DNA from: Vulcanimicrobiota bacterium
GTDB taxonomy: Bacteria; Vulcanimicrobiota; Vulcanimicrobiia; Vulcanimicrobiales; Vulcanimicrobiaceae
NCBI GenBank assembly: GCA_963820825.1
Contig: CAWGBN010000002.1
Span: 32,001 to 96,000, forward strand
Length of the DNA: 64,000 bases
Reading direction: 5' to 3'
Every line of letters starts with the position of its first letter. Positions within the stretch are counted from its first letter, which is position 1. Made by a program: the position numbers and the translations under genes. The notes beneath the pieces were generated by a model, which saw nothing but the letters and a program-made list of their open reading frames with translations, searched no databases and had not been told where the DNA came from. Shown piece after piece: positions 1 to 21,954 of the stretch.

Positions 1-262
1 CCGAACGGCCGGCGTTGGTGCTGACGACAGTCGCGCGCGCGCGAACAGCCTCCCCGCTCAAACCCTCGTTCACCGGCTGCGGACGATCGGGGGCCGAGCC
101 GGCGTGCGCGACGAGCGAGATCTCCTCGTCGCCGACGTCGTAAATACCAACCCAACGGTACGTACGCGCGCTGCGGATGATCTCGGCGCTCGCGCGAGCG
201 CGCTGCTCGCGCGGCGATTCGGTGTCGGCCGCACGCGCGAGGCTGCGCACGGTTTCGTTCAT
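1..262 (-). CDS. GAF-domain protein, 3' end outside window
   Basis: Manual translation MNETVRSLARAAD...IIRSARTYRWVGIYDVGDEEISLVAHAG...GLSGEAVRARATVV; WVGIY and GLSGEA are GAF-like; ATGA overlap with purM stop. Confidence 0.7.
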   Translation of the reverse strand, partial: MNETVRSLARAADTESPREQRARASAEIIRSARTYRWVGIYDVGDEEISLVAHAGSAPDRPQPVNEGLSGEAVRARATVVSTNAGRS

Positions 263-1326: not shown

Positions 1327-1361
1327 AGGCTGGCAGTACTTCACCGTCCGAAAGGTCCACC

Positions 1362-2923: not shown

Positions 2924-3747
2924 CCCTTCGGCAGTCTCACGTCGAGAGCGCACGTCCGTACGAACCCGAGAAGAATCCCGCGATCCGCCGCGTCACTGCG
3001 GGTGCGATCAAACGGCGCAAGGGCAAGACGATTTTTCCGATCGCCACCGCCTACGATGCGCCGTTCGGGCAGTTCGTCGAGGCCGCCGGCATCGACGTCA
3101 TCTTGGTCGGCGATAGCGTCGGAAACGTCGTGCTCGGATTCGACGAGACGACGCCGGTAACGCTAGACAACATGATCCACCACACGCAGGCGGTCGTGCG
3201 CGGGACGACGCGCGCGCACATCATGGCCGACATGCCCTTCGGTTCATACCAGATCAGCAACGAAGAGGCTCTGCGCGCCGCGATCCGATTCGTTAAAGAG
3301 GGCGGAGCCTGTTCGGTGAAGCTCGAGGGCGGCCGCGAACAGGCCGAGCGCATTCGCGCGATTACCGGCGCCGGAATCCCGGTCGTCGGCCACATCGGCG
3401 TCACCCCGCAGACGGCGGGCCTCGGTCCGGGCTTCAAGATGCGAACCCACCGCGACCGTTTGACCGACGACGCGCGATCGGTCGAAGCGGCCGGCGCCTA
3501 CGCGATCGTCCTCGAGGTCGTCGATTTCGAGATCTCGCGCGAGATTACCGAACTGCTCTCGATTCCGACGATCGGCATCGGCGCGGGACCGCACTGCGAT
3601 GCGCAAGTTCTCGTTCTGCACGACATTCTCGGCATGTACCCGCACTCGCCGAGCTTTGCCAAACGCTATGCCGAGGTCGGGAGCCTCGCCACCCAAGCCC
3701 TCGAAGCCTACGCGCGCGACGTGCGCGACAGAAAGTTTCCGGGCTAA
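2920..3747 (+). CDS. panB: 3-methyl-2-oxobutanoate hydroxymethyltransferase
   Basis: TAYD, ILVGDSVG, ADMPFGSY, VKLEGG, GHIGVTPQ, TIGIGAG; GTGA overlap with pepA stop. Confidence 0.95.
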   Translation: MTLRQSHVESARPYEPEKNPAIRRVTAGAIKRRKGKTIFPIATAYDAPFGQFVEAAGIDVILVGDSVGNVVLGFDETTPVTLDNMIHHTQAVVRGTTRAHIMADMPFGSYQISNEEALRAAIRFVKEGGACSVKLEGGREQAERIRAITGAGIPVVGHIGVTPQTAGLGPGFKMRTHRDRLTDDARSVEAAGAYAIVLEVVDFEISREITELLSIPTIGIGAGPHCDAQVLVLHDILGMYPHSPSFAKRYAEVGSLATQALEAYARDVRDRKFPG

Positions 3748-4789: not shown

Positions 4790-6154
4790 TTAGGCCTTTT
4801 GGAGCTGGTGCGCCGCCGGTAGATTCGGATATTCGCCGATCAGACAGCCGAGGCACATCTCTTCGCGCTTGCGGCCGACTGCGGCGATCAATCCGCCGAG
4901 GCTCAGATAGCCCAGCGAATCGGCACCGGTCTTCTGCCGAATCTCTTCGACCGAATGATTTGCCGCGATGAGCTCGCCGTAGGTCGCCATGTCGACGCCG
5001 AGATAGCACGGGTGCTTGATCGGCGGCGAGGTGATCCGCAGGTGAACCTCGTTCGCCCCCGCTTCGCGAAGCAACGCGACGATGCGAGGCGTCGTCGTTC
5101 CGCGGACGATCGAGTCGTCGACCACGATCACGCGTTGGCCTTCGAGGTTTTCGACGACCGGATTGAACTTCAAATGCACCCCGCGCGAACGCATGCGCTG
5201 GTCGGGGCTGATGAACGTGCGGCCGATGTAGCGATTCTTGATCAAGCCTTCGATATACGGTAATCCGCTCTCCGCGGCGTAGCCGATGCCGCCGGCAACG
5301 GCCGAGTCGGGAACCGCCATGACCACGTCGGCTTCGACCGGGTGCTCGCGGGCGAGCTCTCGTCCCATCGCGTAGCGCGCCATGTAGATGGAGCGCTCGC
5401 TGAACTTCGAATCGGGGCGCGCAAAGTAAATGTACTCGAACATGCAGAGCGCCGGCTTCGCGAACTCGACCTCCGTCTGGTGCGACTCCAGGCCGTCCGG
5501 CCCGATCCGGATGATCTCGCCGCGCTCGATCTCGCGCAGATATTGAGCGCCGACCGTTCCCAGCGCGCACGACTCCGAGGCGACGACGTATCCGTTGTCG
5601 CCGAGTCGGCCGAGGCAGAGCGGGCGAACGCCCCACGGATCGCGGAACGCGTAGAGTTCGCTCTGGGTGCAGAGGACGATTGAGTAGGCGCCGCGCGCCG
5701 ATGCGAGCACCGCCTTGATGCGGTCGAGCATCGTGCCCTTCGACTCGACGATCAGCTTCGCCATCACCTCGGAATCGGAGGTCGCCTGCAAAACCGTCGT
5801 CGGCGCGAGCCGATCGCGCAGCTCGTCGGTGTTGGTGAGGTTACCGTTATGCGCGAAGGCGAAGTCGCCGAGCTCGCTGCGTTCCAGCAGCGGCTGGGCG
5901 TTGACGACGATCGACGAGCCGGTCGTCGAATAGCGCGTGTGGCCGATCGCGATGTGGCCGCTCAGATCGCTGAGGATATCCTCGTCGAAGATGGCGCCCA
6001 AAAGCCCCATCTCCTTGTGCGAACGGATCGTCCCGCCGTCGGCGGCGGCGATGCCGGCCGATTCTTGCCCGCGATGCTGGAGCGCGTAGAGTGAAAAGAA
6101 CGCAAGGCGAGCCGCGTCGCGTCCGGGTGCGAAGACGCCCGTTATCCCGCACAT
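4790..6154 (-). CDS. purF: Amidophosphoribosyltransferase
   Basis: N-terminal MCG nucleophile, LQHRGQES, HTRYST, HNGNL, CMFEYIYFARPDS, VDDSIVRGTT. Confidence 0.97.
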   Translation of the reverse strand: MCGITGVFAPGRDAARLAFFSLYALQHRGQESAGIAAADGGTIRSHKEMGLLGAIFDEDILSDLSGHIAIGHTRYSTTGSSIVVNAQPLLERSELGDFAFAHNGNLTNTDELRDRLAPTTVLQATSDSEVMAKLIVESKGTMLDRIKAVLASARGAYSIVLCTQSELYAFRDPWGVRPLCLGRLGDNGYVVASESCALGTVGAQYLREIERGEIIRIGPDGLESHQTEVEFAKPALCMFEYIYFARPDSKFSERSIYMARYAMGRELAREHPVEADVVMAVPDSAVAGGIGYAAESGLPYIEGLIKNRYIGRTFISPDQRMRSRGVHLKFNPVVENLEGQRVIVVDDSIVRGTTTPRIVALLREAGANEVHLRITSPPIKHPCYLGVDMATYGELIAANHSVEEIRQKTGADSLGYLSLGGLIAAVGRKREEMCLGCLIGEYPNLPAAHQLQKA

Positions 6155-6902: not shown

Positions 6903-8174
6903 TTACACCGGGCAGGCGGCGATATCCGTTCGGTAGGTCAGGGCGTCGGTTCCGAGGCGTCCCGCGAGCTGCTTCACTCCGGCGTAGGCTTTCGAGCGCG
7001 CCTCCGCGAGCGCGTCGCCGAGGGCGGTTACGGTGAGCACCCGGCCCCCGCCGGTGCTGACGCTTCCGTCGACGCGGCGCGACGCGCCCCAAAATGCGCG
7101 GCAGCCCTCACCGAGCGAGAGGTCGGGAGTCAATCCCTCGAGCGGCGTGTTGCTGCGCGGATAATCGGCCGTCGCTAAGACGACGCCGACGCAATGCTGT
7201 GCCGACGTGGACGCGAGCGAGAGATCCATCGCGCCGCGCGCGACCGAATCGAGCAGCAGCGCGAAGTCGCCGCCGATCCGCGGCAGCAGTACCTGCGTTT
7301 CGGGGTCGCCGAAGCGCGCGTTGAACTCGATGACGTGCGGACCCGCCTCGTTCCACATCAAGCCGCAGTAGACGACGCCGACGTAGTTCTCGCCTTCGGC
7401 GAGCAAGGCGCGCAGCAACGGCCCGAGGATGCGCTCGCGCACCCGATCCTCGAGATCGTCGGGAAATCGTGCCGGCGGCGAGTACGCGCCCATGCCGCCG
7501 GTATTGGGTCCGGTGTCGCCGTCGCCGGCGCGCTTATAATCGCAGGCTCCGCCGATGGGAACGATCGCCCGGCCGTCGCAGAGTGCGAAGATGCTCACCT
7601 CGCGACCCTCCAAACGCTCTTCGAGCACGACGTCGGAGCCGCCGCCCGGCAGGTGCGCGCCGTCGTACCATTCGTGCAGCACGGCGCGCGCCGATTCAAC
7701 GTCGGGCGCCACGACCACGCCCTTTCCGGCGGCAAGCCCGTCGGCTTTCACGACGACCGCGCCCTTCCAAACGTCGAGCGCTTTCTGTGCGGCGTCGAGC
7801 GAATGCGCGACCACGGCGCGAGCGGTCGGAATGCCGTGGCGTTCCATGAAACGCTTTGCAAAGATCTTGCTCGATTCGAGCCGTCCGCCCGAACGATTGG
7901 GGCCGAACACCGCGATTCCGGCGTCGCGCAGACGATCGCCGACGCCGGCCGCTATTGCGGTCTCCGGGCCGAGCACGACGAGATCGATGCGCTCGTCGAG
8001 GCAACGCTGCGTCAGGCTCTTGCCGTCGGTCGCGGCGATATCCCAGTTCTCGCCGCGCGACGCGGTGCCGGCATTGCCGGGCGCGGCGAAGACGGCCTCG
8101 CACGACGGCGACTCGGCGATTCGCCACGAGAGCGCATCCTCGCGCGCGCCGTTACCGACGACGAGGACGCGCAT
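6903..8174 (-). CDS. purD: Phosphoribosylamine--glycine ligase
   Basis: VLVVGNGARE, APGNAG, LESSKIFAK, VKADGLAAGKGV, GPNTGGMGAYSP, EFNARFGDPETQ. Confidence 0.97.
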   Translation of the reverse strand: MRVLVVGNGAREDALSWRIAESPSCEAVFAAPGNAGTASRGENWDIAATDGKSLTQRCLDERIDLVVLGPETAIAAGVGDRLRDAGIAVFGPNRSGGRLESSKIFAKRFMERHGIPTARAVVAHSLDAAQKALDVWKGAVVVKADGLAAGKGVVVAPDVESARAVLHEWYDGAHLPGGGSDVVLEERLEGREVSIFALCDGRAIVPIGGACDYKRAGDGDTGPNTGGMGAYSPPARFPDDLEDRVRERILGPLLRALLAEGENYVGVVYCGLMWNEAGPHVIEFNARFGDPETQVLLPRIGGDFALLLDSVARGAMDLSLASTSAQHCVGVVLATADYPRSNTPLEGLTPDLSLGEGCRAFWGASRRVDGSVSTGGGRVLTVTALGDALAEARSKAYAGVKQLAGRLGTDALTYRTDIAACPV

Positions 8175-8177
8175 CGG

Positions 8178-9719
8178 CTACTCCCACTCGACGGTCGCCG
8201 GCGGCTTCGTCGTGACGTCGTACGCGATCCGGTTGACGCCGCGCACTTCGTTGACGATGCGCGCAGAGATCCGCTCGAGCAGCTCGTGCGGAAGCCGTGC
8301 CCAGTCGGCCGTCATTCCGTCCTCGCTGGTAATCGCGCGAATCGCCACGAGATTCGCGTACGTACGTCCGTCGCCCATCACGCCGACGCTCTTAACCGGC
8401 GTCAGCACCGCGAAGTATTGCCAGGGGTGCGGATCGAGCGTCGCACCGTCTATCTCCTCGCGGACGATCGCATCGGCGGCGCGCACCACCGCGAGCCGCT
8501 CGGGCGTAACGTCTCCGATGATCCGAACCGCGAGCCCCGGGCCGGGAAAGGGTTGCCGGCCGACGATCCGCTCGGGAAGACCGAGCGCGCGGCCGAGCTC
8601 GCGCACCTCATCTTTGAAGAGCGTGCGCAGCGGCTCGATCAGCGCGAGCCCCATCTTCTCCGGCAGGCCGCCGACGTTGTGATGCGATTTGATCTTCTCG
8701 CCGGCCTTACTCCCGGGCGTCTTCGATTCGATCACGTCGGGGTAGAGCGTGCCTTGCACCAAGTACTTCACGCCCGGAATCTTTGCCGCTTCGCGTTCGA
8801 AGACGTCGATGAACTCGTGGCCGATGATTACCCGCTTGCGCTCCGGATCTTCGACCCCGCGCAGCTTGCTCAAGAACCCGTCGCTCGCATCGACCGCGAC
8901 GACGTTGAGGTGCAGCAGCTCGCGAAAGGCCCCGATTACCTCCTCCGCCTCACCCTGGCGCAGGAGTCCGTGGTCGACGAAGATGCAGGTGAGCTGCTCG
9001 CCGATCGCCCGTGCGACCAGCGTCGCCGCAACCGCCGAATCGACTCCGCCCGAAAGCGCGCAGATCACCTTGTCGTTGCCGACTTGAGCGCGGATCTCGC
9101 CGATAGACTGCTCGAGGAATGAGTCCATCTTCCAATCCCGGCCCAGCCCGGCGACCTCGTGGAGGAAGTTGTCGAGAATCGTTCGCCCGTGCTCGGTATG
9201 CACGACCTCGGGATGGAACTGCACCCCGTAGATCTTCCGCTCGGGATCGCCCATCGCCGCAACGTGACAACGCGCCGTCGACGCGAGCATGCGATACCCG
9301 TTGGGGAGCGAGACGACCGAATCGCCGTGCGACATCCAGACCCGCGACTCTTCCGGGACGCCATCGAAGAGCGGCGTCTCGCGATCGAGAACGACCAGCC
9401 TCGCCGGACCGTACTCTGCGTGATCGAGCTTGACCAGCTCCGCGCCGACGTCGCGCGCGACGAGCTGCATGCCGTAGCAGATGCCCAAAATCGGAACGCC
9501 CGATTCGACGATTGCCGCATCCATCTCCGGTGCGCCCTCGACCATCGTGCTTTCCGGTCCGCCCGAGAGAATCAACGCCGCGGGGTCGCGCGCCGCGAGC
9601 GTATTCCACGGCGTATCGTGCGGAACGATCTCGCAGTAGACGCCGAGCTCGCGGATTCGGCGCGCAATGAGCTGTCCGTACTGCGCGCCGAAGTCGAGAA
9701 CGAAGACGGTTGCGGGCAT
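8178..9719 (-). CDS. guaA: GMP synthase (glutamine-hydrolysing)
   Basis: [45 protein letters not shown]. Confidence 0.98.
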
Positions 9720-9722
9720 CGA

Positions 9723-10262
9723 CTATGCCGCGGCTGCGGCAGCTTTCAGTGCAGTGTCGTAGTCGGGCTCGCTGGCGACGTCGGGGACGATCTGCACGTA
9801 TTTGATCGTGCGGTCCTTGCCGATCACGACGATCGCGCGGGCGTGGAACCCGAGCTCCTCGATCAACAGACCGTAGTTCAACCCGAAACTATGATCGCGA
9901 TAATCCGAGAGCATCCCGAGCTTGATCCCGTCCTGTGCGCCGCACCAGCGCGCCTGCGCGAAGGGCAGGTCCATGCTCACCACGGCGACGCGAACGTTCT
10001 CGGGCAGCTCTCCTAACCGGGCGTTGAACTTCTGCGACTCCATCGAGCAGACGGGCGTATCGAGCGAGGGGACGACGATGAGCATCACCGCGTTCTTCCC
10101 CTCGTCGGTCAAGATCCTGGGCGAGACGGTGGAGAGATCGCCGGTCGTCAACGTAAACTCGGGCGCCGGATCGCCGGCGCGCAGCTCGGGTCCGAGCAGC
10201 GTCATCGGCTTTCCTTTAAATGTCGTAACTCCGGTGCGTGTTTGCACCCCATTGACGGTCAT
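9723..10262 (-). CDS. tpx: Thiol peroxidase (Tpx-type peroxiredoxin)
   Basis: VPSLDTPVC, SMDLPFAQARWC, EPDY; SD ggagg. Confidence 0.93.
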   Translation of the reverse strand: MTVNGVQTRTGVTTFKGKPMTLLGPELRAGDPAPEFTLTTGDLSTVSPRILTDEGKNAVMLIVVPSLDTPVCSMESQKFNARLGELPENVRVAVVSMDLPFAQARWCGAQDGIKLGMLSDYRDHSFGLNYGLLIEELGFHARAIVVIGKDRTIKYVQIVPDVASEPDYDTALKAAAAAA

Positions 10263-10291
10263 CGGTACCTCCATTAGCGGCTGTTGGTATG

Positions 10292-11428
10292 TTATGTCAA
10301 CACATCTTCGAGGCGATCGGTGTCGCGCGCCATGACGATCTCCATCGCGATGCGCTCGCCGACGGAAACGTCGCGTCCCCATCGGTAGGCGGAGTAGGGC
10401 GTGTAGCGCGTTCCGGGCGAGCCCGGGATGCGCAGCGAGACGTCGTAGCAGACGAGCTCCTTCGGCGGGCCCGCCGTCACGACGCACTGCAATGCGAAGG
10501 GGCCGATCACGCCGGGCGGCTGCGCCTCGCACGCCGCAGCGACGAAACGATCGCCCATCGCAAAGGCCGGTTCGAGCATCGACTCGAGAACGGTGGCCGC
10601 GATATGCCCCGCCTCCTCGAGACGCATCGGCACGTCGCGCACGGCCTCGAACGCAAAGGGCGGCAGGTTGCGAAAGCCTTCGAGATTCGTCTGACGCCGC
10701 GTATCGGTGCCGCTCAGCTCGAGCTCGCCGAGCAGCGGCGAGTAGAAGAAATTGAAGTTGACCGAAGGGCCGAGCGCATACTCCTCGATCCGCGCCGCCG
10801 CAAGCCCCTCCGCGGTCAGCACACCGGCTTCGATCAATCGGTCGCTCGTCGCGCGGTACTCCGCAGGCGACGATGCCAAGAAAAACGCGCGCTCGAAGCT
10901 GACTCGCGCGTGCGGCGCCTTCACCATCACGAGCCGGTCGATCTCCTCCGGTGAGGAAAACTCGCGCGGATGCCTGATCCCGGCCCACCGCAGCAACGCG
11001 TATTGGTTTCCCTCTCCTTCGCGCTCCTCGGCTTTGAGCAGTGCGCGATTGCCGAAAAACGGTACGAGCATCCGCCGTTCGATCTCGTCGTACTCGAACT
11101 TCTGGTGCAAGTAGACCTCGAACGACCGGTTTGCGACGAAGATCACGTTTTGATCGAGCAGCCGGCGCTGCACGTCCGCGCGCAGAATCTCCGTAAAGGC
11201 GTCGAGCTCCAGGGTCGCATCGACGCATCCCCGTCGCGGATTCTCTGCGACGGCAAAGTATCGCGCATACGTCTGCTCGCGTCCCTTTGCGGTCACGACG
11301 AGATTGCGGAGGCCCTGAGTCCGCGCTCCGTATGCCACCTCGAGCGCCGAATGGCTGCCGATCGAACACAGGGTCAAGGCAGAACGATCGTAGACCGCAA
11401 GCGCATCCGTGACGTGCTCCGTACTCAC
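10292..11428 (-). CDS. Archaeal PurP-like ATP-grasp protein (DUF1246/DUF1297), divergent paralogue
   Basis: GSHSALEV, FGNRALLKAEER, FERAFF, NFNFFYSPL, DTRRQTN, GPFALQ, DVSLRIPGSP, GERIAMEI. Confidence 0.88.
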   Translation of the reverse strand: MSTEHVTDALAVYDRSALTLCSIGSHSALEVAYGARTQGLRNLVVTAKGREQTYARYFAVAENPRRGCVDATLELDAFTEILRADVQRRLLDQNVIFVANRSFEVYLHQKFEYDEIERRMLVPFFGNRALLKAEEREGEGNQYALLRWAGIRHPREFSSPEEIDRLVMVKAPHARVSFERAFFLASSPAEYRATSDRLIEAGVLTAEGLAAARIEEYALGPSVNFNFFYSPLLGELELSGTDTRRQTNLEGFRNLPPFAFEAVRDVPMRLEEAGHIAATVLESMLEPAFAMGDRFVAAACEAQPPGVIGPFALQCVVTAGPPKELVCYDVSLRIPGSPGTRYTPYSAYRWGRDVSVGERIAMEIVMARDTDRLEDVLT

Positions 11429-11435
11429 GACCGCG

Positions 11436-12422
11436 TCATTCGACGCGAACCTTGCCGCCCATGCGCCGCCACACGATCGGCGCATAGATTGCGACGACGG
11501 CGATGCCGGCTACGTTGACGGCGAGCGCGCAGCTCAAGGCGATCGCTGAAGGAGCCGCCGCAAAGATCGAGATCCCTCCGCGTCCGAACGGAAGTCCCGG
11601 CAAAAGGTATGGAAAGATCGTTCCCGCAAACGCGACAAGCAGCGCGATGATAAATGCCGACGTCGCTAGGAAAGCCGTAGCCGGCCGCCCGCGCCGGGCG
11701 CTCCGCCACATCAGGAGGAGCGCCGAGACCGAGACCGCCGGCATCGCGAAGAGCCACGCCGCCCGAACCGGCCCGTGCGCTACGAACGTAAGCCCGGTTA
11801 CGACGAGATAAAGCGCACCGACGACCCAAACCCCGGCGCCCACAACACGCATCGCGCGGGCGCAGGGCTTGCCCTCGATCCGCATGGCCGCAAACGCGGC
11901 CCCGTGCGTTGAAAGCGTAACCAGTGCGAAGAGGGCCACCAGCAGCGCGTACGGATTCAACAAGAATGCAAACGTCCCGCGAAAGTACCCGGCCGCATCG
12001 AGCGGCAGACCGTGAAGTAAGTTCCCCAGCGCGAGCCCGAAGATGAAGATCAGCAGCGCACTCGAGAGCGCGAATGCCGTATCCCAAGCCTGATGCCAGA
12101 GCGCCGACGCAAAATGGTCGCGCAGCTCGATCGCGATGCCTCGAAACATGAGCAGCCAGAGACTGACGATGAACGGCAGATAAAAGCCGGAGAATGACGA
12201 GGCGTACGCCGCCGGAAAGAGCGCGAAGAGCGCCGCCGCCGCCGCAATGAGCCATACCTCGTTTCCGTTCCAGAACGGTCCGATGCTCGCCATCACCGCG
12301 CTGCGCTCCCGGTCGTCGCGCGCGATCAGCGGCGCAATCGCGGCGGCGCCGAGGTCGAACCCGTCGAGCACGACGTACGCCGTCAACATAAAGGCGATCA
12401 CGATAAAGGCCGCGACGCTCAC
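11436..12422 (-). CDS. cydB: Cytochrome bd ubiquinol oxidase subunit II
   Basis: YVVLDGFDLG, IGPFWNGNEVWL, FRGIAIELR; multi-TM. Confidence 0.95.
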   Translation of the reverse strand: MSVAAFIVIAFMLTAYVVLDGFDLGAAAIAPLIARDDRERSAVMASIGPFWNGNEVWLIAAAAALFALFPAAYASSFSGFYLPFIVSLWLLMFRGIAIELRDHFASALWHQAWDTAFALSSALLIFIFGLALGNLLHGLPLDAAGYFRGTFAFLLNPYALLVALFALVTLSTHGAAFAAMRIEGKPCARAMRVVGAGVWVVGALYLVVTGLTFVAHGPVRAAWLFAMPAVSVSALLLMWRSARRGRPATAFLATSAFIIALLVAFAGTIFPYLLPGLPFGRGGISIFAAAPSAIALSCALAVNVAGIAVVAIYAPIVWRRMGGKVRVE

Positions 12423-13747
12423 GCCACGCGCCCTCGGCGTGACGGGCCCTCACCGATCTCGCGCAGCATCGAGTATAGGAAGATCACGCCGATCAGGAAG
12501 TACATTCCGAGAAAGCCGATCAGGGTAAAGACCGTTTCGCCGGTCGCGACCGTGGGCGAGCCGCCTTGCGCGGTTTTCATGAGGCCGTAGATAATCCACG
12601 GCTGACGGCCGACTTCGGTAACGATCCAGCCCGCCTCGTTTGCGACGTACGGAAACGGCATCAGCAGCATCAAACACCACAACATTAATCGGGCGCGCCA
12701 GAGACGGCCGGCGAGCAGCAAGAATGCCGCGAGCCCCGACGCCGCCGCAAAGATCATGCCGAGTCCGACCATGACGTGATAGGCGTAGTACGTAAGTTCG
12801 ACCGGGGGCCAAAGGTCACGCGCGTACGCGCTCAGGCCGCCGACGTTCGCGTAACGGTTGCCGTAGGCCAGGAAGCTCAGGAACTCCGGCACGTAAATGG
12901 GATCGATCAGACGGGCGTTCGCAACGTCGGGCATGCCGACGATTGCCAGCGGCGCGCCGCGGGTCGTCTTAAAGAGTCCTTCCATGGCCGCCAGCTTCAC
13001 CGGCTGAAAACTCGTGACGCTCTTGCCGTTACGGTCCCCAGTCGGAAAGACCGCAAGCACGGCAAAGATTAGCCCAACGATCACCCCGGCACGCACGAAT
13101 CGCCGCCCGGCCGACTCGTCACGTTCCGAAAGAAGATAATACGCACCGATGCCCGCGACGATGAAGGCGCCGCAGAGAATCGCCCCGGCAAGGACGTGTG
13201 CGAACTGCCAGAACAAGAATGGCGACGAGAGCACGCGCCAGATGTTTTGCAGCTCGATCGTGCCGTCGGTCCGAATCGCGTAACCGACCGGATGCTGCAT
13301 CCAGGCCTCCGTCGCAATCACGAAAAAGCCGGAGAGCCACGAACCGAGGCACACGAAAACGGCCGACCACGCGGTGAACGCGTCCGGCGGTCCGCTGCGC
13401 CCGTAGAGCACCACGCCGAGAAAGATCGACTCCAGGAAGAACGCAAAGACGCTTTCCATCGCGAGCGGCTGCCCGACAACCGAGCCGGATCGTTGCGCAA
13501 AGGCAGCCCAGTTGGTACCGAACTGAAACTCCATGGGGATGCCGCTGACCACGCCGACGGCGAAGTTGATCGCGAAGATTCGCGTGAAAAACCTCGCGAT
13601 CCGCGCCGATTCTTCATCGCGGTCGCGGGCGGCTTTCCACGTATAGGCCGCGACAAACGGCGCCAACCCCATCGTTCCGATCGGAAAGAGGTAATGGAAC
13701 ATGACGGTAAACGCGAACTGCAGACGGTCGGCGAGTACCGGATCCAC
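12419..13747 (-). CDS. cydA: Cytochrome bd ubiquinol oxidase subunit I (short Q-loop)
   Basis: RLQFAFTVMFHYLF, MEFQFGTNW, AFFLES, WMQHP, QPVKLAAME, NEAGWIVTEVGRQPW. Confidence 0.96.
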   Translation of the reverse strand: MDPVLADRLQFAFTVMFHYLFPIGTMGLAPFVAAYTWKAARDRDEESARIARFFTRIFAINFAVGVVSGIPMEFQFGTNWAAFAQRSGSVVGQPLAMESVFAFFLESIFLGVVLYGRSGPPDAFTAWSAVFVCLGSWLSGFFVIATEAWMQHPVGYAIRTDGTIELQNIWRVLSSPFLFWQFAHVLAGAILCGAFIVAGIGAYYLLSERDESAGRRFVRAGVIVGLIFAVLAVFPTGDRNGKSVTSFQPVKLAAMEGLFKTTRGAPLAIVGMPDVANARLIDPIYVPEFLSFLAYGNRYANVGGLSAYARDLWPPVELTYYAYHVMVGLGMIFAAASGLAAFLLLAGRLWRARLMLWCLMLLMPFPYVANEAGWIVTEVGRQPWIIYGLMKTAQGGSPTVATGETVFTLIGFLGMYFLIGVIFLYSMLREIGEGPSRRGRVA

Positions 13748-13762
13748 GGCAAAACCGCGAGG

Positions 13763-14878
13763 CTACGTTCCCAGCAGCTTGCGCGCTTGGGCGCTGTCTT
13801 GATATTCTACGGTGAGAATCGCCTTGATCTCCGACGCGGCACCGCGCGACTGCCGGTCGGTCATGCGCTGCAGCGTCGTGTAACACCAGTAGAGCAGCAT
13901 CGGAAGATCGCGATCGCGGGGATAGACCCGCTGCATCGCAACGATTGCCTTGGCAACGTCCATCGCCGGGTCGCTCTCGGCGTTGCCGTAGTTGTAATCG
14001 AGCATGAAATTGATGTGCTTGAGCCGGTTCTCGATCTCGAGAATCGACATGCCCATCGGCCCGAAGTATTCGTCGGCCGGAGCGAGCGTCGACAGGTAGG
14101 CGTCGTGCGGCATGGAGCTGACGGTGGCGATCACGCGAAGCGGATCGACGGCTTTCAGCCGCGCGAGAAAGCGCTGCGCGTTGGCGACCTCCGCTCCGCT
14201 ATATCCACGATCGGTCGAGGCGCCGCTCGCGGCGTTCACCAGCTCGTTGCCCCAGGTCGTCGGCAGATGCGCGACCGGAAAGTTCGGCGCCGCGGCGCGC
14301 GAAAACGCAAGCGCTCGCCACGACGGATTGTGCGTCAAGAGCCACCCGCGCCAATCGGCCTCGACTTGGATCAGCAGCGCGTCGATATCCCCGGGGTAGG
14401 CTTTGACGTTCGCCGTCGCATCGGCATCGGCGAAACGAGCGAGCTGGGCCGGATCGTCCTCGGAGTTCACGCGCTGCAGTAGGTTCTGCGCCTGCGAGAG
14501 CAGTTGCAGATCCTCCGAGTGCTTCGAGACCCAATCGGCGGCCTCGCGCACCCACCAGACGGCGGCGTCGTGATTGGTCAACGGATTGTAATGCAAGCCC
14601 TGACCGATGCGGACGGTGAGCGTGGCCAGCTCGCCGTAGTTCGTATCGTCCGGATACTGCAGCGAATAGGCCCGGCCGGCATTGAAAATCGTCGAAAGAT
14701 AGAGCTCCTGCGAGCGAAAGTCCCAGCCGGCCGCCGAGCCTTTCGCGTACGCGTCCTTCATTTGCGCGTAAAGGACGGCCGGATCGACCTCGAGCGTCGC
14801 TAGCGCCGGCGTCGGTGCGACGACCGTCACGAGCAGCGCGAATACGAGCGCAGCGCCACTACAGAATGCTCGAGTCAT
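13763..14878 (-). CDS. Exported alpha-helical hypothetical protein
   Basis: 371 aa, signal peptide, host-like codon usage, APADEYFG segment; overlaps the purP stop. Confidence 0.75.
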   Translation of the reverse strand: MTRAFCSGAALVFALLVTVVAPTPALATLEVDPAVLYAQMKDAYAKGSAAGWDFRSQELYLSTIFNAGRAYSLQYPDDTNYGELATLTVRIGQGLHYNPLTNHDAAVWWVREAADWVSKHSEDLQLLSQAQNLLQRVNSEDDPAQLARFADADATANVKAYPGDIDALLIQVEADWRGWLLTHNPSWRALAFSRAAAPNFPVAHLPTTWGNELVNAASGASTDRGYSGAEVANAQRFLARLKAVDPLRVIATVSSMPHDAYLSTLAPADEYFGPMGMSILEIENRLKHINFMLDYNYGNAESDPAMDVAKAIVAMQRVYPRDRDLPMLLYWCYTTLQRMTDRQSRGAASEIKAILTVEYQDSAQARKLLGT

Positions 14879-15881
14879 CCAAAACCAAATGTAAATTATT
14901 GGTCAGCAGCGCGTTCTTGATCTCGCGTGCGATCCGCCGTCCCGTCGACATCGGCTCCGAATAGTTGAGATACGAATAGGGCGAGCCGTCGATGAAGAGA
15001 TTCGTCCCGGCGACGATCCGCGCTGAGATCTCCATCACGTAGAATTGAATGTCGGGTGTAATGATCGTCTCGATGCAGAACGCGCCGAAGAGACCTTTCG
15101 GGCCGCAGATCTCCTTGCTCACGCGCACCACGTCGTCACCCATGCGCAGCGCCTCGGCGAGCATCGATTCACGCAACGAGACCGGCTGATTGCCGACGAC
15201 CACGTACGAGGGGCTGACGTCCATGCCTTCCTGCGCCGCGGCCGGAATGCGGCCGAGCGAATCGACGTTCGTCTCGTAGCGGCGATCCATCGACATGATC
15301 TCGAGCTTGTGCTGCAGCGGCGAGTAGAAGTAGTGAATGTAGAGCGGTACCCCGATGATGTACTCTTGGATCGTATAGGCTTCTTTCAGATGCGCCGCGC
15401 GGACTTCGAAGTCGTGCGTATCTTGAATGAACATGTAACCCTTGCCGCCCGCCGCCCCGTAGAGCTTGACGATGACCGGCCGGTCAATCTCGGCGCCGCT
15501 GCGAAACTGGCGCGGCAGCTTCAGGCCCGCGCGCGAGAGCCACTCGCGCTGCAGCTCGCGGCTCGCCTCCCAATCGAGAACCGCCTTATTACCGAAGTAG
15601 GGTATCGTCATCTTCTTATGTTCGTCGAGCGAGAGGTACGCGACGAACGAGCCGTGCGGAACGATGATGACCTTGCGCTTCTGGAGCTCCGCGATCTGGG
15701 ACATGAACTCGGAGTAATCGTTGAGCGCGATCACCCCGTCCACGAAGGCGAACGACTTATAGAGGCGCTCCGTGTCGCGATTCGAGACGGCGAGGGTGCG
15801 AAAACCCTCGTCGTGCGCGCCTTTTAATATCTGCAGCGCCGAGTGCGAGCCGAGCGTCGCGATCGTGTACGGGCGGTCCAT
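14859..15881 (-). CDS. purP: Formate--AICAR ligase (FAICAR synthetase), archaeal PurP type
   Basis: TLGSHSALQILKGAHDEGF, VPHGSFVAY, HYFYSPL, MDRRYETN, VVGNQP..LRESML, EISARIVAGTN, MSTGRRIAREIK. Confidence 0.92.
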   Translation of the reverse strand: MDRPYTIATLGSHSALQILKGAHDEGFRTLAVSNRDTERLYKSFAFVDGVIALNDYSEFMSQIAELQKRKVIIVPHGSFVAYLSLDEHKKMTIPYFGNKAVLDWEASRELQREWLSRAGLKLPRQFRSGAEIDRPVIVKLYGAAGGKGYMFIQDTHDFEVRAAHLKEAYTIQEYIIGVPLYIHYFYSPLQHKLEIMSMDRRYETNVDSLGRIPAAAQEGMDVSPSYVVVGNQPVSLRESMLAEALRMGDDVVRVSKEICGPKGLFGAFCIETIITPDIQFYVMEISARIVAGTNLFIDGSPYSYLNYSEPMSTGRRIAREIKNALLTNNLHLVLDDSSIL

Positions 15882-15891
15882 GCGCTCCTAG

Positions 15892-16320
15892 TTACTCGCC
15901 CTCGCCGCGATTGTCCCGGTCGCGCTCATGCTGCGACGTAACCGCGCGGTCGATCGCCGGATTGCACAAAAGTCGCTCGATCGCCGCGTCGAGCACGGCG
16001 CGCCCCGCCGGCGCACCGCTCTCGTCGAAGAGGCGCCAGGCGGTCACGGCATGCCGTTCGTGCGCGGCGAGCGGTTCGATCCAGACTTCGCCGGCACGCG
16101 GGCGCGTTTCGTCGAGGACGGCGAGGCGGTGCTTGTTGGGATTGAAGATCGTCTCGTCGGCGCGAACGCGCGCCGCGAGCGCGGCGGCGTCGTCCGATTC
16201 GTAGAAATAGACCTCGCTGCGTTCGAGCCGCGCGACGTCGACGCAGAGGCGGCGCAGCGTCACGAGCGCCGTATACGCGGTGTTGTCGGGGATCTTGAGC
16301 GAGATCGCGACCGCGCGCAT
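15892..16320 (-). CDS. purS: PurS-like protein (apparent tandem domain)
   Basis: Directly downstream of purQ; SLKIPDNTA, IFNPNKH and LLCNPAID resemble two PurS NP motifs. Confidence 0.6.
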   Translation of the reverse strand: MRAVAISLKIPDNTAYTALVTLRRLCVDVARLERSEVYFYESDDAAALAARVRADETIFNPNKHRLAVLDETRPRAGEVWIEPLAAHERHAVTAWRLFDESGAPAGRAVLDAAIERLLCNPAIDRAVTSQHERDRDNRGEGE

Positions 16321-17084
16321 TATGCCGATACCGCCGCAACGAAGCTTTTAAAGAGCGTTGCCCCGCCCGAGGGCGCGAGCACCTCGCCGTCGCGACGGTC
16401 GAGATGATTGAAATTCCACCCGTCGCGTTCGGGATGCGGCATGATCGCCAGCACGTTCCCCTCCGGATTGACGAGCCCGGCACAGCCGAGCGCCGAGGCG
16501 TTGGGGATTGCCGCCTCGTCGACGCGGCCGTCGGCGTGCGCGTACACGAAGAGCAAGTGCCCGCCGGCACGGATCTCGTCGAGGTGTTCCGGTGTGGCGG
16601 CAAGACGCCCCTCGGCATGCGCCGCCCACGCCGGAACGAGCGCCTCCTCGGGCAAGGCCGCGGTGATCGCGCTGCGCGACGGAGCGGCCGCGAGCTTCAT
16701 GTAGACGTGACGGCAGACAAAGTGCGGCTCCGGACCGTTGCGGGCAAATGCCGCCGTGGGTTTGCGAATCGCTCCGGTACCCGGCACGAGGCCCGCCTCG
16801 AGCAGAATCTGCGCGCCGTTGCAGATGCCGAAGACGAGCCGTCCGCGCTGCACCCCCTCGATCACGAAATCCATCATGCGGTCGTGCGCGGCGATCGCGC
16901 CGGCGCGAACGCGATCCTCGTAGGCGAAGCCTCCGGAGAGAACGTACGCGTCGTACTCGCGCAGCCGCTCCGCCTGCGTCCAGTGCACCAGCGCCGCCTC
17001 GCCGCCGCAGTCGCGCAGCAGACGCAGCGTTTCGTCCTCCGAGTTCGTTCCGGGAAAGACGAGCACCGCAATGCGCGCGCTCAT
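16320..17084 (-). CDS. purQ: FGAM synthase glutaminase subunit
   Basis: VFPGTN, GGFAYED, GICNGAQIL, MPHPER; ATGA overlap with purL stop. Confidence 0.95.
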   Translation of the reverse strand: MSARIAVLVFPGTNSEDETLRLLRDCGGEAALVHWTQAERLREYDAYVLSGGFAYEDRVRAGAIAAHDRMMDFVIEGVQRGRLVFGICNGAQILLEAGLVPGTGAIRKPTAAFARNGPEPHFVCRHVYMKLAAAPSRSAITAALPEEALVPAWAAHAEGRLAATPEHLDEIRAGGHLLFVYAHADGRVDEAAIPNASALGCAGLVNPEGNVLAIMPHPERDGWNFNHLDRRDGEVLAPSGGATLFKSFVAAVSA

Positions 17085-19294
17085 GGGTAGATCCCCGCCA
17101 AGGGCTGCGACCATATCGCGTAGAGACGCGCTAGGTCGAAGCGAATCCCGTTTACGATCAGCTCGCGCCCCGCGATCGTCCGGCCGATGCGAAGCGCACC
17201 GGTGAGATCGATCTCGCGTTCGTCGCTCACCTCGCAGATGAACCCGCCGGCTTCGCAGAGCGGGTTGCCGAAGTCGATCTCGGCGCCGATCTCGCGTCCG
17301 CGCAGCGTCGCGTCGAATGCGAGCCGCGCGAGCGCGGTGAGCATGCCGCCGTTGCCGATCGCGCGACACGAGAGCAAGGCGCCGCGCATATTTGCGTCGT
17401 GAACGATTCCCAGCGCGGCGCGTTCGCCGGCGTAGGAGATTGCCGGCAGTGCGCCTTCAATGCCGAGCAGTTCGGCGAGGACCGATCCCCCGACGGCGAG
17501 CTCGCGGCTTCCGATCCAGAGCAAGGTCGAATCGGACGCCTTCAACCCCGGCGTCACCACGCGCGAAACGTCGTCGAGCGCACCGATGCAGGCGACGATC
17601 GCCGAGGCGGGGACGGCGCGGCCAGTGCTCGATTCGTTGTAGAAGCTGACGTTGCCGGAGACGAAGGGCAGATCGAGCTCGGTTGCCGCTCGCGCCAAGC
17701 CGTCGACCGCGGCGACGAACTCGCCGTATTGATCGGGCTTGCGCGGATTTCCGAAGTTCAGGCAATCGGTCAGGCCGATCGGTCGCGCGCCGACCGCCGC
17801 AACGTTACGCATCGCTTCAACGACGGCGTGTTCGGCGGCGTACCCCGGATCGATCCGCCCGTAACGCGGATTTCCGGCCACGGCGAGTGCGACGCCGAGC
17901 GTCGAGCCGGGGACGGGCGCGAGCACGCCGGCATCGGCAACGCCGCGCGCAAGGACGGTGCAACCGCGCACGACCGCATCGTAGCGGCGGTAGAGCGGCT
18001 CGCGCGAGGCGACGTCGCGATGGGCGAGGATGCGTGGAAAGAGCCGCTCGACGTCGACGGCTGCGAGTTCTTCGACCGCGCCCTCGTGGCGAATGACCTC
18101 GGTATAGGGCAGCTCGTCGCGGATGGAGCCGGCGAGAAAATCGCTCTCGACGTCCATCACGACCTCGCCGCGGTAGCGCAGAACGTAACGCGGCTCGGAG
18201 GTAACGCGCCCGACGATCGTCGCACAGGCGTTGAAGGCGATCTCCGGCAGCGTAAACTCTTCGTTATAGATGCGCACCGCCTCGCGGGCGATCTCCGGCG
18301 GGAGAATCCAGAGCAGGCGCTCTTGGGTCTCGCCGACGGCGATCACCTCCGGCGGCATACCCTCGACGGCAACGTTGACCCGATCGAGATCGATCTCCGC
18401 GCCGTAACCGCCTTGCGCCGCTATCTCGGCCGAACACCCAACGATGCCGCCCGCGCCGAGATCTTTGAACCCCGCGCAGATCTTCTTCTCCCGCAGCAAC
18501 GCGAAGAGCCGATAGCTCGCGCGCATCAGCACGTTCTTCAAGAACGGATCGGGGACTTGAACCGCGCCCTTATTGAGCTCCGCCTCCTGCGCATCGAGCG
18601 TCAGCGATGAGAACGACGCGCCGCCGAAGCCGCTCGGATCGGTTGCTTTGCCGACGAGCACGATCGCCCAATCGTCGGCGCCCTTTGGTGCCGACGAATG
18701 GACGATCTCCGACTCTTTGACGATGCCCATCGCCACGACGTTGACCAGCGCGTTCTCGTCGAAGCCTTCGTCGAAATACACGTCGCCCGCGAGGTTAGGA
18801 ACGCCGATCGCGTTGCCGTACGATCCGATGCCGTCGACGACGCCCTGCGCGACGTGGCGCGCGTGCGTTCCGCTCTCCTCCACCCGTCCGAAGCGCAGCG
18901 GATCGGCGACGCCGATGACTTCGGCGCCCATGCAGAGCACGTCGCGCACGATGCCGCCGATTCCGGTCGCCGCGCCCTCGAAGGGAACGATCTGCGAGGG
19001 ATGGTTATGCGACTCGTGAGCGACGACCACGGCGTACCGCTCGCCCTCGTGGACGCCCAGGTGGAGCGCTCCGGCGTCCTCTCCAGGACCGAGGACGACG
19101 CTGCCGCCGCTGGTCGGAAGCCGCTTTAAGTGATGGCGGCTCGATTTGTAGCTGCAATGTTCGCTCCACTGCGCGTCAAAGGCGTGCAGCTCGACGATCG
19201 TAGGTTCGCGTCCGAGCCGCTGCTTGATGCGCTGCAACTCGTCGTCGCGCAGTGCGACGTTCGGAGCTCCATAGAGCCCACTAACCAAGGGCAT
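17081..19294 (-). CDS. purL: FGAM synthase synthetase subunit (small PurL)
   Basis: WSEHCSYKS, ESHNHPS, GAATGIGG, DLGAGG, ETQER, DCLNFGNP, SGNVSFYN. Confidence 0.97.
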   Translation of the reverse strand: MPLVSGLYGAPNVALRDDELQRIKQRLGREPTIVELHAFDAQWSEHCSYKSSRHHLKRLPTSGGSVVLGPGEDAGALHLGVHEGERYAVVVAHESHNHPSQIVPFEGAATGIGGIVRDVLCMGAEVIGVADPLRFGRVEESGTHARHVAQGVVDGIGSYGNAIGVPNLAGDVYFDEGFDENALVNVVAMGIVKESEIVHSSAPKGADDWAIVLVGKATDPSGFGGASFSSLTLDAQEAELNKGAVQVPDPFLKNVLMRASYRLFALLREKKICAGFKDLGAGGIVGCSAEIAAQGGYGAEIDLDRVNVAVEGMPPEVIAVGETQERLLWILPPEIAREAVRIYNEEFTLPEIAFNACATIVGRVTSEPRYVLRYRGEVVMDVESDFLAGSIRDELPYTEVIRHEGAVEELAAVDVERLFPRILAHRDVASREPLYRRYDAVVRGCTVLARGVADAGVLAPVPGSTLGVALAVAGNPRYGRIDPGYAAEHAVVEAMRNVAAVGARPIGLTDCLNFGNPRKPDQYGEFVAAVDGLARAATELDLPFVSGNVSFYNESSTGRAVPASAIVACIGALDDVSRVVTPGLKASDSTLLWIGSRELAVGGSVLAELLGIEGALPAISYAGERAALGIVHDANMRGALLSCRAIGNGGMLTALARLAFDATLRGREIGAEIDFGNPLCEAGGFICEVSDEREIDLTGALRIGRTIAGRELIVNGIRFDLARLYAIWSQPLAGIYP

Positions 19295-20480
19295 TTCCTT
19301 GCGCGACCGGAGCCTGCTGCTGTAACGCGGCGTCGGCGTGGAGCACGCTCGAGCGAGCGTTGGCCTGCATGAGCAGCGTTCGTCCGAAGAGCACCGTGTC
19401 TTCGAGGCCGAGCAGTTTGGCGCACTGCATCGCCAGTTGCTGCGGCGCGATCGCCCCGTCGAGCACCGGAGCCGACGAGGTCTCCTCGAGCATCGAGCGC
19501 AGCAAATCGTTCTCGCCCACCGCGATCAGGATCAACCGCCCGAAACTCGTCTCGAGCTGTTGGACGAGTTGCAAGACGTAGGCGGGGGTCGAGGACGGGC
19601 TGGCGACGTGACGGACCGTCGGAAGTCCGAGTTGCCCGAGCATCTTGACGACCTCGTTCGCCCGCTCGATCTGCGCCGGCGAGTCGGCGATGACGGCGCC
19701 CATCCCCGGACGCATGACCGGGAAGGTTCCGACGAAATCGGCGACGCGTTCGTACGCGCGCTTCACCCGCTCGAGCGCTTCGTCGTCGACGCTCTCCAAA
19801 TTCCGGTAGATCTGCTTGTCGAGCATCAGCTCTTCGCGGCCCTGCGGCCAGAGACGCCACGAATCGTTGTCGATCACGTCGGCGATGACGAGCTGGCCTT
19901 GGTTCTCGCCGCCGGCCAGGCGCCCGAACTCGATCTTCAAATCGACGAGCAGCACGTCGCGCCGTCGCCAGGCGTGCGAGAGAATCTCGAAGGTCAAGCG
20001 CGCGAGCTCGGTCATCACGCCGACCTCTTGCGGCGACGCGAGGTTGCGGGCGATGATTTGATCCGGAGTAATCAGCGGATCGTGGTTGGCATCGTCTTTG
20101 AAAAAGAACTCGATGACCCGCGGGACGAGCAGCGTGCCGCGCTGCAGACTTGGATTGCGCTTGATAAACGAACCGGCCGCAACGCCGCGTGTGACGACCT
20201 CGAGCGGAATCATGTTGCAGCGCCGCACGACCATCTCGTTGTCGTCGTCATCCTCGCCGCCGTTGAGATAGTGGGTCGGCAAGCCGCACAAGTTGAGCAA
20301 GCGAAAGACTCGTGCGGTCGTCTGGGCGGCGAGCCGCCCCTTACCGGAGATCTCGTTGCGGCGCGCGCCGTCGCCGGCCGAGATATTATCCATCTGGTCG
20401 ACGACGAGCTGATGCGGCTGACCGGGATTCTCGTAGAGAACCTTGGTCTTGCCGCGCGCGATCTCGATGCCCTTATTCAT
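19281..20480 (-). CDS. purC: PAICS-type SAICAR synthetase fused to a degenerate PurE domain
   Basis: GKTKVLY, KDDANHDP, LVDLKIEFG, ADVIDNDSWRLWP, LDKQIYR; C-terminal ~140 aa follows the PurE pattern without its catalytic motifs. Confidence 0.92.
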   Translation of the reverse strand: MNKGIEIARGKTKVLYENPGQPHQLVVDQMDNISAGDGARRNEISGKGRLAAQTTARVFRLLNLCGLPTHYLNGGEDDDDNEMVVRRCNMIPLEVVTRGVAAGSFIKRNPSLQRGTLLVPRVIEFFFKDDANHDPLITPDQIIARNLASPQEVGVMTELARLTFEILSHAWRRRDVLLVDLKIEFGRLAGGENQGQLVIADVIDNDSWRLWPQGREELMLDKQIYRNLESVDDEALERVKRAYERVADFVGTFPVMRPGMGAVIADSPAQIERANEVVKMLGQLGLPTVRHVASPSSTPAYVLQLVQQLETSFGRLILIAVGENDLLRSMLEETSSAPVLDGAIAPQQLAMQCAKLLGLEDTVLFGRTLLMQANARSSVLHADAALQQQAPVAQGNALG

Positions 20481-21895
20481 GAGACGCGCACCTCGATCTG
20501 GCGCGGAAACGGCTCGAGATGCTCGATGCGGCCGGCGAGCAGCCGGGCCCGCTGCGGTGCGGTTCCTACCTGCGTGCTCGGATCGAGCAGGCGCCTGATC
20601 TCGGCGGGGTCGAGCAACGCGGTCAACTCGGGATCTTCGGCAAGCAGGCGCGAGAGCGGATTATCCTCGCCGCGACCAACCGCCGCCCACGCCTCCATCG
20701 ATGCACTGCGCAGTCTTTCGTGGAGCTGCTGGCGGTCTCCGCCGGCGCGGACCGCCTCGAGCATGACGGCCTGCGTGCCGGCAAACGGCGCGTAGGTTCG
20801 CAAGTTCGCGGCGATTCGGCGCTCGTCGACCCGCATGCCGTCGACGACGGTGCGCGCCAGCGTTACGATCTCGTCGGCGCAGAGCAGCGCTTCGGGAAGC
20901 ACCACGCGTCGGTTCGCGCTATCGTCCAACGTTCGTTCCAGGAAGTTCGTCGCGGCGTTCTGCCAAGTGACGTCGGCGTATGCGGGAAGGAGCCGCGCGA
21001 GCGAGCCGATGCGCTCGCTCAAAATTGGATTGCGCTTGAACGGCATCGCGGAGCTGCCGACTTGCCCCTTGCCGAACGGCTCCGAGATCTCGCCGAAGCC
21101 GGGGCTCGCGAGCACGCGTACGTCTGCGGCGAACTTCGAGAGCGATGCTCCCAGACCGGCGAGCGCCGAGAGCAGCAGGTAATCGAGCTTGCGCGGATAG
21201 GTCTGCGTGCTGATCTCGCGCGCCATCAGACCGAATCGCTCGAGGACGAAGGCCTCGATCTCGCTCGAGCGCCCGCTGTGTTGAAGGAGGCGTTCGTACG
21301 ACGCCGCGGTGCCGACCGCACCGCGTAATCCCTTGGTCGTCAAGTTCTCGAAGACGAAGCGCAGCGTCCGGTCGTCAACGAGCAGATCCTGTGCGTAGGC
21401 CGCGAGCCGGTAGCCGACCGTCGTCGGCTCCGCAGGCTGCAGATGCGTGTAGGCCATGCAGATGAGATCCGCGTGCTCGCGAATCTTCGCGGCGAAGGTA
21501 ACGAGCAGTTCGTCGAGGTTCCGGCCGACGTACGAGAGCGCGAGGCGCAAGCGATAGGTCTCGACGGTGTCTTCGATATCCATCGACGTCGCGCCAAGAT
21601 GCAGCTTTCCGCCACCGCGCCGCGCTTGCTGCGCGAAGACCCGAATCTCCGCCATGAGATCGTGGTGGATCTCCCGCTCGATCTCGACGGCGGCTTCGAC
21701 GTCGATTTCGCCCGCGTGCGCGCGCAGGTCGGCGACCTCGCCTTCCTCTATGAGACCGTGGACCGACTGCGCCTCGGCGAGAGCGACCCAGGCCGCACGC
21801 CAGAGCCGGCGGCGCATCTTCTCCGAAAAGAGCACGCGCAGCGGCGCGCGTCCGTATCTCCACGAGAACGGAGAGGCGTAGGATTCGTAATCCAT
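20477..21895 (-). CDS. purB: Adenylosuccinate lyase
   Basis: YASPFSWRY, HDLMA, LHLGATS, THLQPA, GSSAMPFKRNP, ERTLDDSA. Confidence 0.96.
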   Translation of the reverse strand: MDYESYASPFSWRYGRAPLRVLFSEKMRRRLWRAAWVALAEAQSVHGLIEEGEVADLRAHAGEIDVEAAVEIEREIHHDLMAEIRVFAQQARRGGGKLHLGATSMDIEDTVETYRLRLALSYVGRNLDELLVTFAAKIREHADLICMAYTHLQPAEPTTVGYRLAAYAQDLLVDDRTLRFVFENLTTKGLRGAVGTAASYERLLQHSGRSSEIEAFVLERFGLMAREISTQTYPRKLDYLLLSALAGLGASLSKFAADVRVLASPGFGEISEPFGKGQVGSSAMPFKRNPILSERIGSLARLLPAYADVTWQNAATNFLERTLDDSANRRVVLPEALLCADEIVTLARTVVDGMRVDERRIAANLRTYAPFAGTQAVMLEAVRAGGDRQQLHERLRSASMEAWAAVGRGEDNPLSRLLAEDPELTALLDPAEIRRLLDPSTQVGTAPQRARLLAGRIEHLEPFPRQIEVRVS

Positions 21896-21954
21896 GGACG
21901 AGGTTGCCCTTCGCCTCACGGGAAGCCGCCGCCTCGTCACCGTACTGCACGAAA

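Follow-up and report, generated by a model that had tools for sequence, protein, structure and literature searches.

Why does a bacterium hold two genes of the archaeal PurP type in its purine operon when the folate-dependent enzymes of purine synthesis are encoded in the same genome? The question is raised by a 64,000-nucleotide stretch of a Vulcanimicrobiota bacterium (contig CAWGBN010000002.1, positions 32,001 to 96,000), here called the window, in which purP-A (14859-15881, minus strand) and purP-B (10292-11428, minus strand) lie in one run of purine genes. The current work shows that purP-A and purP-B are bacterial members of a known archaeal gene pair, kept beside the standard pathway. 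Their action as one heteromeric enzyme, formylating 5-aminoimidazole-4-carboxamide ribonucleotide (AICAR) with formate and ATP in parallel with PurH, is the function somewhat favoured here. An earlier note on this DNA, made from the letters of the window, had proposed a folate-independent pathway instead.

Among PurP proteins, only the cluster Ia enzyme of Methanocaldococcus jannaschii has shown activity. PF1517 and PF0421 of Pyrococcus furiosus were each reported inactive, PF1517 binding ATP and AICAR, and extracts of Sulfolobus put formate into inosine monophosphate (IMP) (PMC3261824). A heterohexamer of PurP II and PurP III was proposed to explain these findings; in the same source, a survey of 1,266 bacterial genomes gave no PurP, and 10 archaea were counted that have the II/III pair together with purH (PMC6486802). 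Since the negative results with the P. furiosus proteins, the function of the pair has been a puzzle, although it is essential to many archaea that possess no alternative AICAR formyltransferase. In the open literature, subscription papers being outside the scope, PurP is described as confined to archaea and no report of it in bacteria was found among titles and abstract openings; neither purine, folate nor formate is mentioned in the passages of PMC9758169. Automatic naming by NCBI and the Joint Genome Institute (JGI) already covers these bacterial proteins.

Two PurP proteins of separate subfamilies

purP-A encodes an ATP-grasp protein of 340 residues that belongs to PurP II (cluster Ib), with a glycine P-loop and Asn at M. 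jannaschii position 258. purP-B encodes a PurP III (cluster II) protein of 378 residues, with a loop two residues longer and His at position 258; its frame is open back to 11485, and the GTG at 11428 is the start that gives 378 residues, compared with about 379-380 in its homologs. DUF1246 (PF06849) and DUF1297 (PF06973) score above the Pfam cut-offs in both proteins, and the PDB relatives of both are three archaeal PurP sequences only. E values are 8e-88 (purP-A) and 2e-63 (purP-B) against M. jannaschii PurP (2r7k), and 2e-98 and 8e-38 against P. furiosus PF1517 (2r84). Close named homologs are labelled Eremiobacterota, Vulcanimicrobiaceae, Baltobacteraceae, Cybelea or Tumulicola, and one carries a Verrucomicrobiae label.

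The two paralogues reported in the earlier note are thus real in coordinates, family and surrounding run, but its word "canonical" was too strong for purP-A, a cluster Ib protein of at most 385 bits. The cut-offs of NCBIfam PRK13278 (482-603 bits) were reached by neither protein, the best scores being 385 against 590 for purP-A and 247 against 556 for purP-B. Scores below these cut-offs, together with two purP genes and a purH in the host genome, do not fit PurP I (cluster Ia). In the family profile search neither protein matched TIGR01142 (PurT).

Diagnostic residues were tallied in 454 distinct near-full-length sequences, 455 of 577 matches having passed an 85% coverage filter; database proteins were placed in the class by identity, and the sequences are close kin. 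Subfamily markers were taken from PMC3261824, and M. jannaschii numbering from alignments to the solved structures. Asn258 appears in all 143 class A-type sequences, fitting PurP II (cluster Ib), and His258 in all 134 class B-type sequences, fitting PurP III (cluster II). The loop has 15 residues in B, where it is basic and without glycines, versus 13 in A. In purP-A the four P-loop glycines are invariant (43/43 aligned) and the length is that of archaeal A-types; the first position departs from the Lys/Arg of the consensus (K/R)GG(K/R)G, being mostly Ala, Gln or Gly in the class.

His27 and Arg314 make the formyl contacts in PurP (PMC3261824). Arg314 is present in every class sequence (143/143 A, 134/134 B), and His27 in 143/143 A and 133/134 B, with one gap; Ser94 and Ser266, which contact the AICAR phosphate, are retained in both. 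purP-A keeps Glu230, Arg264 and Glu310, lacks Arg51 and has Glu at 297. purP-B keeps Arg51 and Gln297, gains Arg93 and has Gln at 230 and Asp at 310. Positions 51, 230, 264, 297 and 310 have functional roles in PurP, Glu230 and Glu310 in ATP/metal binding. As judged from the alignments, purP-A and purP-B each carry a part of the features that M. jannaschii PurP unites in one protein.

Folate-dependent enzymes in the same genome

The host assembly comprises 2.98 Mb in 9 contigs and is 85% complete. As the earlier note had observed, purH, purN and purT are absent from the window; yet purN lies just outside it and purH on contig C6. The latter encodes a protein of 527 residues that aligns end to end with solved PurH and scores 583 bits with PRK00881 (cut-off 402) and 510 with TIGR00355 (cut-off 528, passed by none of the PurH proteins in 61 class genomes). 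purH was matched in 60 of the 61, full-length in a single frame in 53 and split or partial in 7; the genome with no match is 59% complete. The transformylase Lys-His pair was found in 21 of 21 class sequences, and the cyclohydrolase motifs are largely retained in the same 21, motif roles being taken in part from PMC3261824. Identity between families is 56% in the transformylase domain and 49% in the cyclohydrolase domain. The idea of a degenerate PurH kept for ring closure only was rejected, the transformylase being intact and better conserved than the cyclohydrolase.

PurN is encoded about 150 bp past the left edge of the window (approximately G000:C2:30743-31850, minus strand), with an N-terminal GNAT fusion. 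It retains the GAR-binding loop (GAR, glycinamide ribonucleotide) and the equivalents of Asn106, His108 and Asp144 of E. coli PurN, the first of which is a catalytic residue; its 136 bits fall short of the 150 that TIGR00639 requires. His108 and Asp144 are catalytic (PMC3261824). With a protein query, purN was matched in 61/61 class genomes. TIGR00639 at E 1e-30 found it in 10/61 only, with none above its cut-off, because a 17-residue insertion, located after the catalytic His, splits the match. The GNAT-PurN fusion occurs in the host, G006 and G022 (also at L005:8744-9889), and PurN stands alone in G044, G047 and G049.

Folate synthesis is likewise encoded. folE2 and folK were found in 31/31 class genomes, and folP, folC, folD and glyA in all five genomes used for the wider folate and purine searches (G000, G018, G022, G037 and G049). 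Type I folE was detected in none of the five, a gap closed by folE2; folA-type dihydrofolate reductase was found in none despite the other folate genes, a substitute not having been sought. Neither fhs nor purO was found in these five, and no purT scored above the TIGR01142 cut-off; the best match, 154 bits against 502, is most likely purK, as it adjoins purE.

The genome-wide search for purH, purN, purT, purO and folate genes, suggested in the earlier note as a check, therefore turned against the pathway that the note had proposed. Intact purH and purN elsewhere, which the note had named as part of what would refute it, were found. Because PurH, PurN and folate biosynthesis genes are present, and purO was not found, purine synthesis here is not folate-independent; the replacement pathway is refuted, and purH and purN are near-universal in the class.

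Distribution, origin and selection

The host class, Vulcanimicrobiia, was taken from homolog names. PF06973 was matched in 61/61 relatives (at least two matches in 60/61) and, in a draw of 301 genomes of the phylum, in 243/243 Vulcanimicrobiia genomes (238 with at least two matches) and 0/58 outside the class; these matches are not copy numbers, and the sampled genomes are kin and not independent. Seven unpublished genomes are included in the tallies (G048, G059, G223, G246, G254, G256 and G269), and nothing else stated here draws on them. Among phylum genomes outside the class, 4 of 20 contained a full purH, 16 of 20 contained no full purH, and PurP was found in none of them.

The two purP genes are directly adjacent in G037, G044, G047 and G049, right after the purS-like gene, and they precede guaA where the region covers it. 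In the host, a gene for a 371-residue protein and cydAB stand between them. The former insertion is also present in G006 and G022; cydAB lies within the purine run in the host and G022 and is absent there in G006 (same genus), G037, G044, G047 and G049. Because the two insertions are limited to some genomes, the tandem pair is the older state. The pair adjoins purH in six further loci, L057, L067, L077, L080, L086 and L090, labelled Micrarchaeota, Nanoarchaeota/Woesearchaeota and Peribacteria, five of which also have purN. Given these six loci, a PurP pair alongside folate enzymes is common.

The tree that the earlier note had suggested, built as a 194-sequence FastTree and a 26-sequence IQ-TREE, places the two proteins in separate archaeal clades. 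In the FastTree, class A and class B each form a clade (support 1.0 and 0.999) on opposite sides. Class purP-A is sister to the Micrarchaeota copy L057 (FastTree 0.98, ultrafast bootstrap 99), within a wider group of Nanoarchaeota/Woesearchaeota, Methanosarcinales-labelled and Peribacteria sequences; the neighbours of purP-B are weakly supported (ultrafast bootstrap 50). Forcing A and B together in the IQ-TREE costs 248 log-likelihood units. Duplication inside bacteria was rejected by the approximately unbiased (AU), Kishino-Hasegawa and Shimodaira-Hasegawa tests, the AU test at 2000 replicates, a number flagged as too few. On these phylogenies A and B fall in separate ancient clades, and the pair predates its entry into the class. 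Since the clades are separate and archaeal and a duplication within bacteria was rejected, the pair was most likely acquired together. The donor was probably archaeal or from the candidate phyla radiation (CPR), as judged from a biased sample: the best 80 of at least 574 matches, centred on a Micrarchaeota query and including two CPR loci only.

Both genes are under purifying selection. Against two genomes of the same genus, with synonymous divergence (dS) of about 0.7-1.2, the ratio of nonsynonymous to synonymous substitution (dN/dS) is 0.04 and 0.08 for purP-A, below that of all the other genes among the 11 compared in the run. For purP-B it is 0.16 and 0.15, similar to purD and purL. Recent transfer or contamination was rejected: G+C at third codon positions (0.83 in purP-A, 0.80 in purP-B) matches that of the neighbours (0.80-0.86), and the synteny is class-wide.

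Proposed function and its alternatives

The following scheme may account for the pair. An ancestor of the class would have taken up an ancient archaeal PurP II and PurP III pair as a unit, which came to be placed between purS and guaA in the purine operon. PurP-A, with a standard ATP site, and PurP-B, with a remodelled one, would together form one heteromeric ATP-grasp enzyme converting AICAR to its formylated product FAICAR with free formate and ATP. The heteromer would act beside the PurH transformylase, which uses folate, and the ring would be closed by the cyclohydrolase domain of PurH; formylation of GAR would remain folate-dependent through PurN. As neither purO nor fhs was found, ring closure would be available from PurH, and formate would have no Fhs route into folate. 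We infer the reaction, the heteromer and formate as the donor, and this parallel enzyme is the function to which we lean slightly. The more demanding version, an obligate two-subunit AICAR formyltransferase in which the functions of the single M. jannaschii enzyme are split, providing a second, formate-fed entry to the final purine steps beside PurH in a soil-type class, we hold at about an even chance.

A heteromeric partner for PurP-A was also among the ideas of the earlier note, and it survives, having already been in print for archaea (PMC6486802). Complex prediction gives it weak support. The A+B model scored 0.54 against 0.00 for the best control, which is a pass. Of 157 solved pairs 116 passed, as did 2 of 215 mismatches, but just 18 of the 157 and both mismatches did so at a score of 0.60 or less; at least 80% of contacts are shared between runs, and the predicted local distance difference test (pLDDT) of the partners is at least 84.

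Several points weigh against a parallel heteromeric enzyme. The strongest is that the proposed activity would be redundant with an intact PurH transformylase, yet purP-A is the most conserved gene of the run, for which reason a non-redundant job fits better. purP-B lacks Arg264 in all 134 class sequences, with Leu, Val or Thr in its place, while Arg or Lys stands at this position in all 79 locus sequences from archaea and CPR; given this loss, the function of bacterial purP-B may no longer be that of its archaeal counterpart. The score of the complex could come from resemblance to PurP homo-oligomers of known structure. No activity is on record for any II/III pair. Finally, no purU-like gene of the formyltransferase family was found in the 85%-complete host genome, so a source of formate was not found.

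The alternative that survives best, although unlikely, divides the labour without an obligate heteromer: PurP-A alone would formylate AICAR, perhaps with another donor, and PurP-B would either act as an IMP cyclohydrolase or be a regulator that binds nucleotides without catalysis. It is consistent with the missing glycine P-loop of purP-B, with its Gln and Asp in place of the Glu230 and Glu310 shared by A and M. jannaschii PurP, and with the far stronger conservation of purP-A. A cyclohydrolase was also raised by Brown 2011, because many pair-carrying archaea lack purO and purH2. The phyletic pattern is, however, imperfect according to the same source. Archaeoglobus has the pair together with PurH2/PurJ; no activity was reported for PF1517, the cluster Ib protein of known structure, and the largely retained PurH cyclohydrolase motifs would make a cyclohydrolase B redundant.

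A little less likely again is a role other than bulk de novo formylation, such as clearance of AICAR (ZMP) from histidine synthesis or salvage, service under folate limitation, or another ATP-grasp purine reaction. Retention of the pair in 243/243 class genomes despite an intact PurH speaks for such a role, as do its company with purH in 10 archaeal genomes (PMC6486802) and in six loci here, and Korarchaeum, where the pair occurs although the remaining de novo genes are missing (Brown 2011). The genes nevertheless lie within a de novo operon, and their AICAR- and formyl-contact residues are conserved; clearance or folate stress would moreover involve the same chemistry as the parallel formyltransferase and differ in physiology alone.

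Replacement of PurH by PurP with the second paralogue as a formate-dependent GAR formyltransferase, as the earlier note had it, is very improbable. In its favour, no purT orthologue was found in the five genomes (the top TIGR01142 match being most likely purK), Archaeoglobi carry the pair without purN or purT, and class PurN is divergent and, in the host, GNAT-fused. Against it, purN (61/61) and purH (60/61) are present, PurN keeps its GAR loop and catalytic equivalents, folate genes are present, purP-B retains AICAR-site residues, most archaea lacking purN and purT have no II/III pair, and most with the pair have purN or purT. A GAR role for the second paralogue is also unlikely beside PurN and in view of the archaeon of Brown 2011 that has the pair and no other de novo purine genes.

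If the obligate two-subunit version is true, the inactivity of the separate archaeal proteins would be explained, and PurP would no longer be an archaea-only signature. A pair fixed across a bacterial class provides copies from outside the hyperthermophiles, suited to tests of each gene and of both in E. coli pur mutants, and lineages that have lost purH would give a cleaner genetic test. No new folate-free pathway is shown, because the host keeps PurH, PurN and folate synthesis.

The purine gene run and its neighbours

Family scans covered 30 selected open reading frames from the first 33 kb of the window. On the minus strand the order is purB, purC, purL, purQ, a purS-like gene, purP-A, the gene for the 371-residue protein, cydA, cydB, purP-B, tpx, guaA, purD, yccA and purF; beyond purF are panB and pepA on the plus strand, then purM. 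The purine genes named in the earlier note (purB, purC, purL/Q/S, guaA, purD and purF) are all there, purS by position only, but purM (259-1344, minus strand) had been overlooked. Across the left window edge, purM is followed by a small gene for a GAF protein and by the GNAT-PurN fusion. Gene junctions around the purP genes are short or overlapping. A scan of the window with Rfam gave two tRNAs only and no riboswitch, and a promoter and terminator scan gave no signal above chance.

All of the following genes are on the minus strand. purB (20477-22045), for adenylosuccinate lyase, scores 351.8 bits with TIGR00928 (cut-off 326.2), the match beginning at residue 62; its coordinates are those of the longest reading frame, and the real start is probably some 55-60 codons further in. 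purL, of the small type (17081-19294), scores 633.6 with TIGR01736 (cut-off 525.75), and purQ (16320-17090) scores 185.4 with TIGR01737 (cut-off 177.8). The probable purS-like gene (15892-16320) is named from position and conserved synteny alone, with the same place in 6 of 6 relatives examined; its protein has no Pfam, NCBIfam or PDB match. The 371-residue protein (13763-14878) is of no known family, without Pfam or NCBIfam matches and with a hydrophobic N-terminus. Its gene, an insertion of the host genus, comes after purP-A and overlaps the end of that gene, and identity is 74-77% in two genomes of the genus. cydA-cydB (11436-13747), for cytochrome bd oxidase, was inserted later and separates the two purP genes. 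The thiol peroxidase gene tpx (9723-10280) scores 167.2 with PRK00522 (cut-off 123); guaA (8178-9719, GMP synthase), purD (6903-8174) and purF (4790-6154) were assigned by family matches.

purC (19281-20480) is fused to a degenerate PurE-like domain, an architecture like that of animal PAICS; a PurC-PurE fusion is also found at L112:10538-11998. The PurE domain of the host reaches 22 bits against 115, and a separate purE-purK pair is located on contig C6. In G049 the orthologue matches 4ja0 and 2h31, two full-length structures of bifunctional PAICS/ADE2, at E 5e-91, compared with 1e-34 for stand-alone PurC, and a TIGR01142 search of that genome found no purK-like gene. Nothing on this fusion was listed in a literature search, and the fusion is perhaps a greater surprise than the PurP pair. 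In pepA (1362-3116, plus strand) another frame takes over after about residue 400, and glyA (G000:C6:256956-258083) is in four pieces in this assembly and intact in relatives; both broken frames are probably assembly indel errors.

Comparison with known systems

Escherichia coli, with PurT and PurN, offers a precedent for a formate- and ATP-using ATP-grasp formyltransferase beside a folate-dependent one. PurT, however, acts on GAR, is supplied by PurU and comes from another ATP-grasp family, and no PurT or PurU orthologue was found in the host. The PurP of M. jannaschii (MJ0136, PurP I or Ia, 2r7k) is of the same fold family, and its His27, Ser94, Ser266 and Arg314 are common to both paralogues. 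It is the single-gene enzyme of methanogens without PurH transformylase, whereas here there are two genes and PurH; its P-loop, Asn258, Glu230, Glu310 and Arg264 are found in A, and its Arg51 and Gln297 in B. The closest parallel is the archaeal II and III pair (Ib and II of Brown 2011; PF1517, PDB 2r84-2r87, and PF0421). Unlike that pair, the present one has a bacterial class as host and a bacterial-type operon, a B protein without Arg264 and an A protein with mostly Ala, Gln or Gly, in place of Lys or Arg, at the first P-loop position. The same subfamily signatures are nevertheless seen in both, with one gene per type; the archaeal pair is likewise linked to pur genes, often guaA, and it coexists with purH, as in Methanosarcinales.

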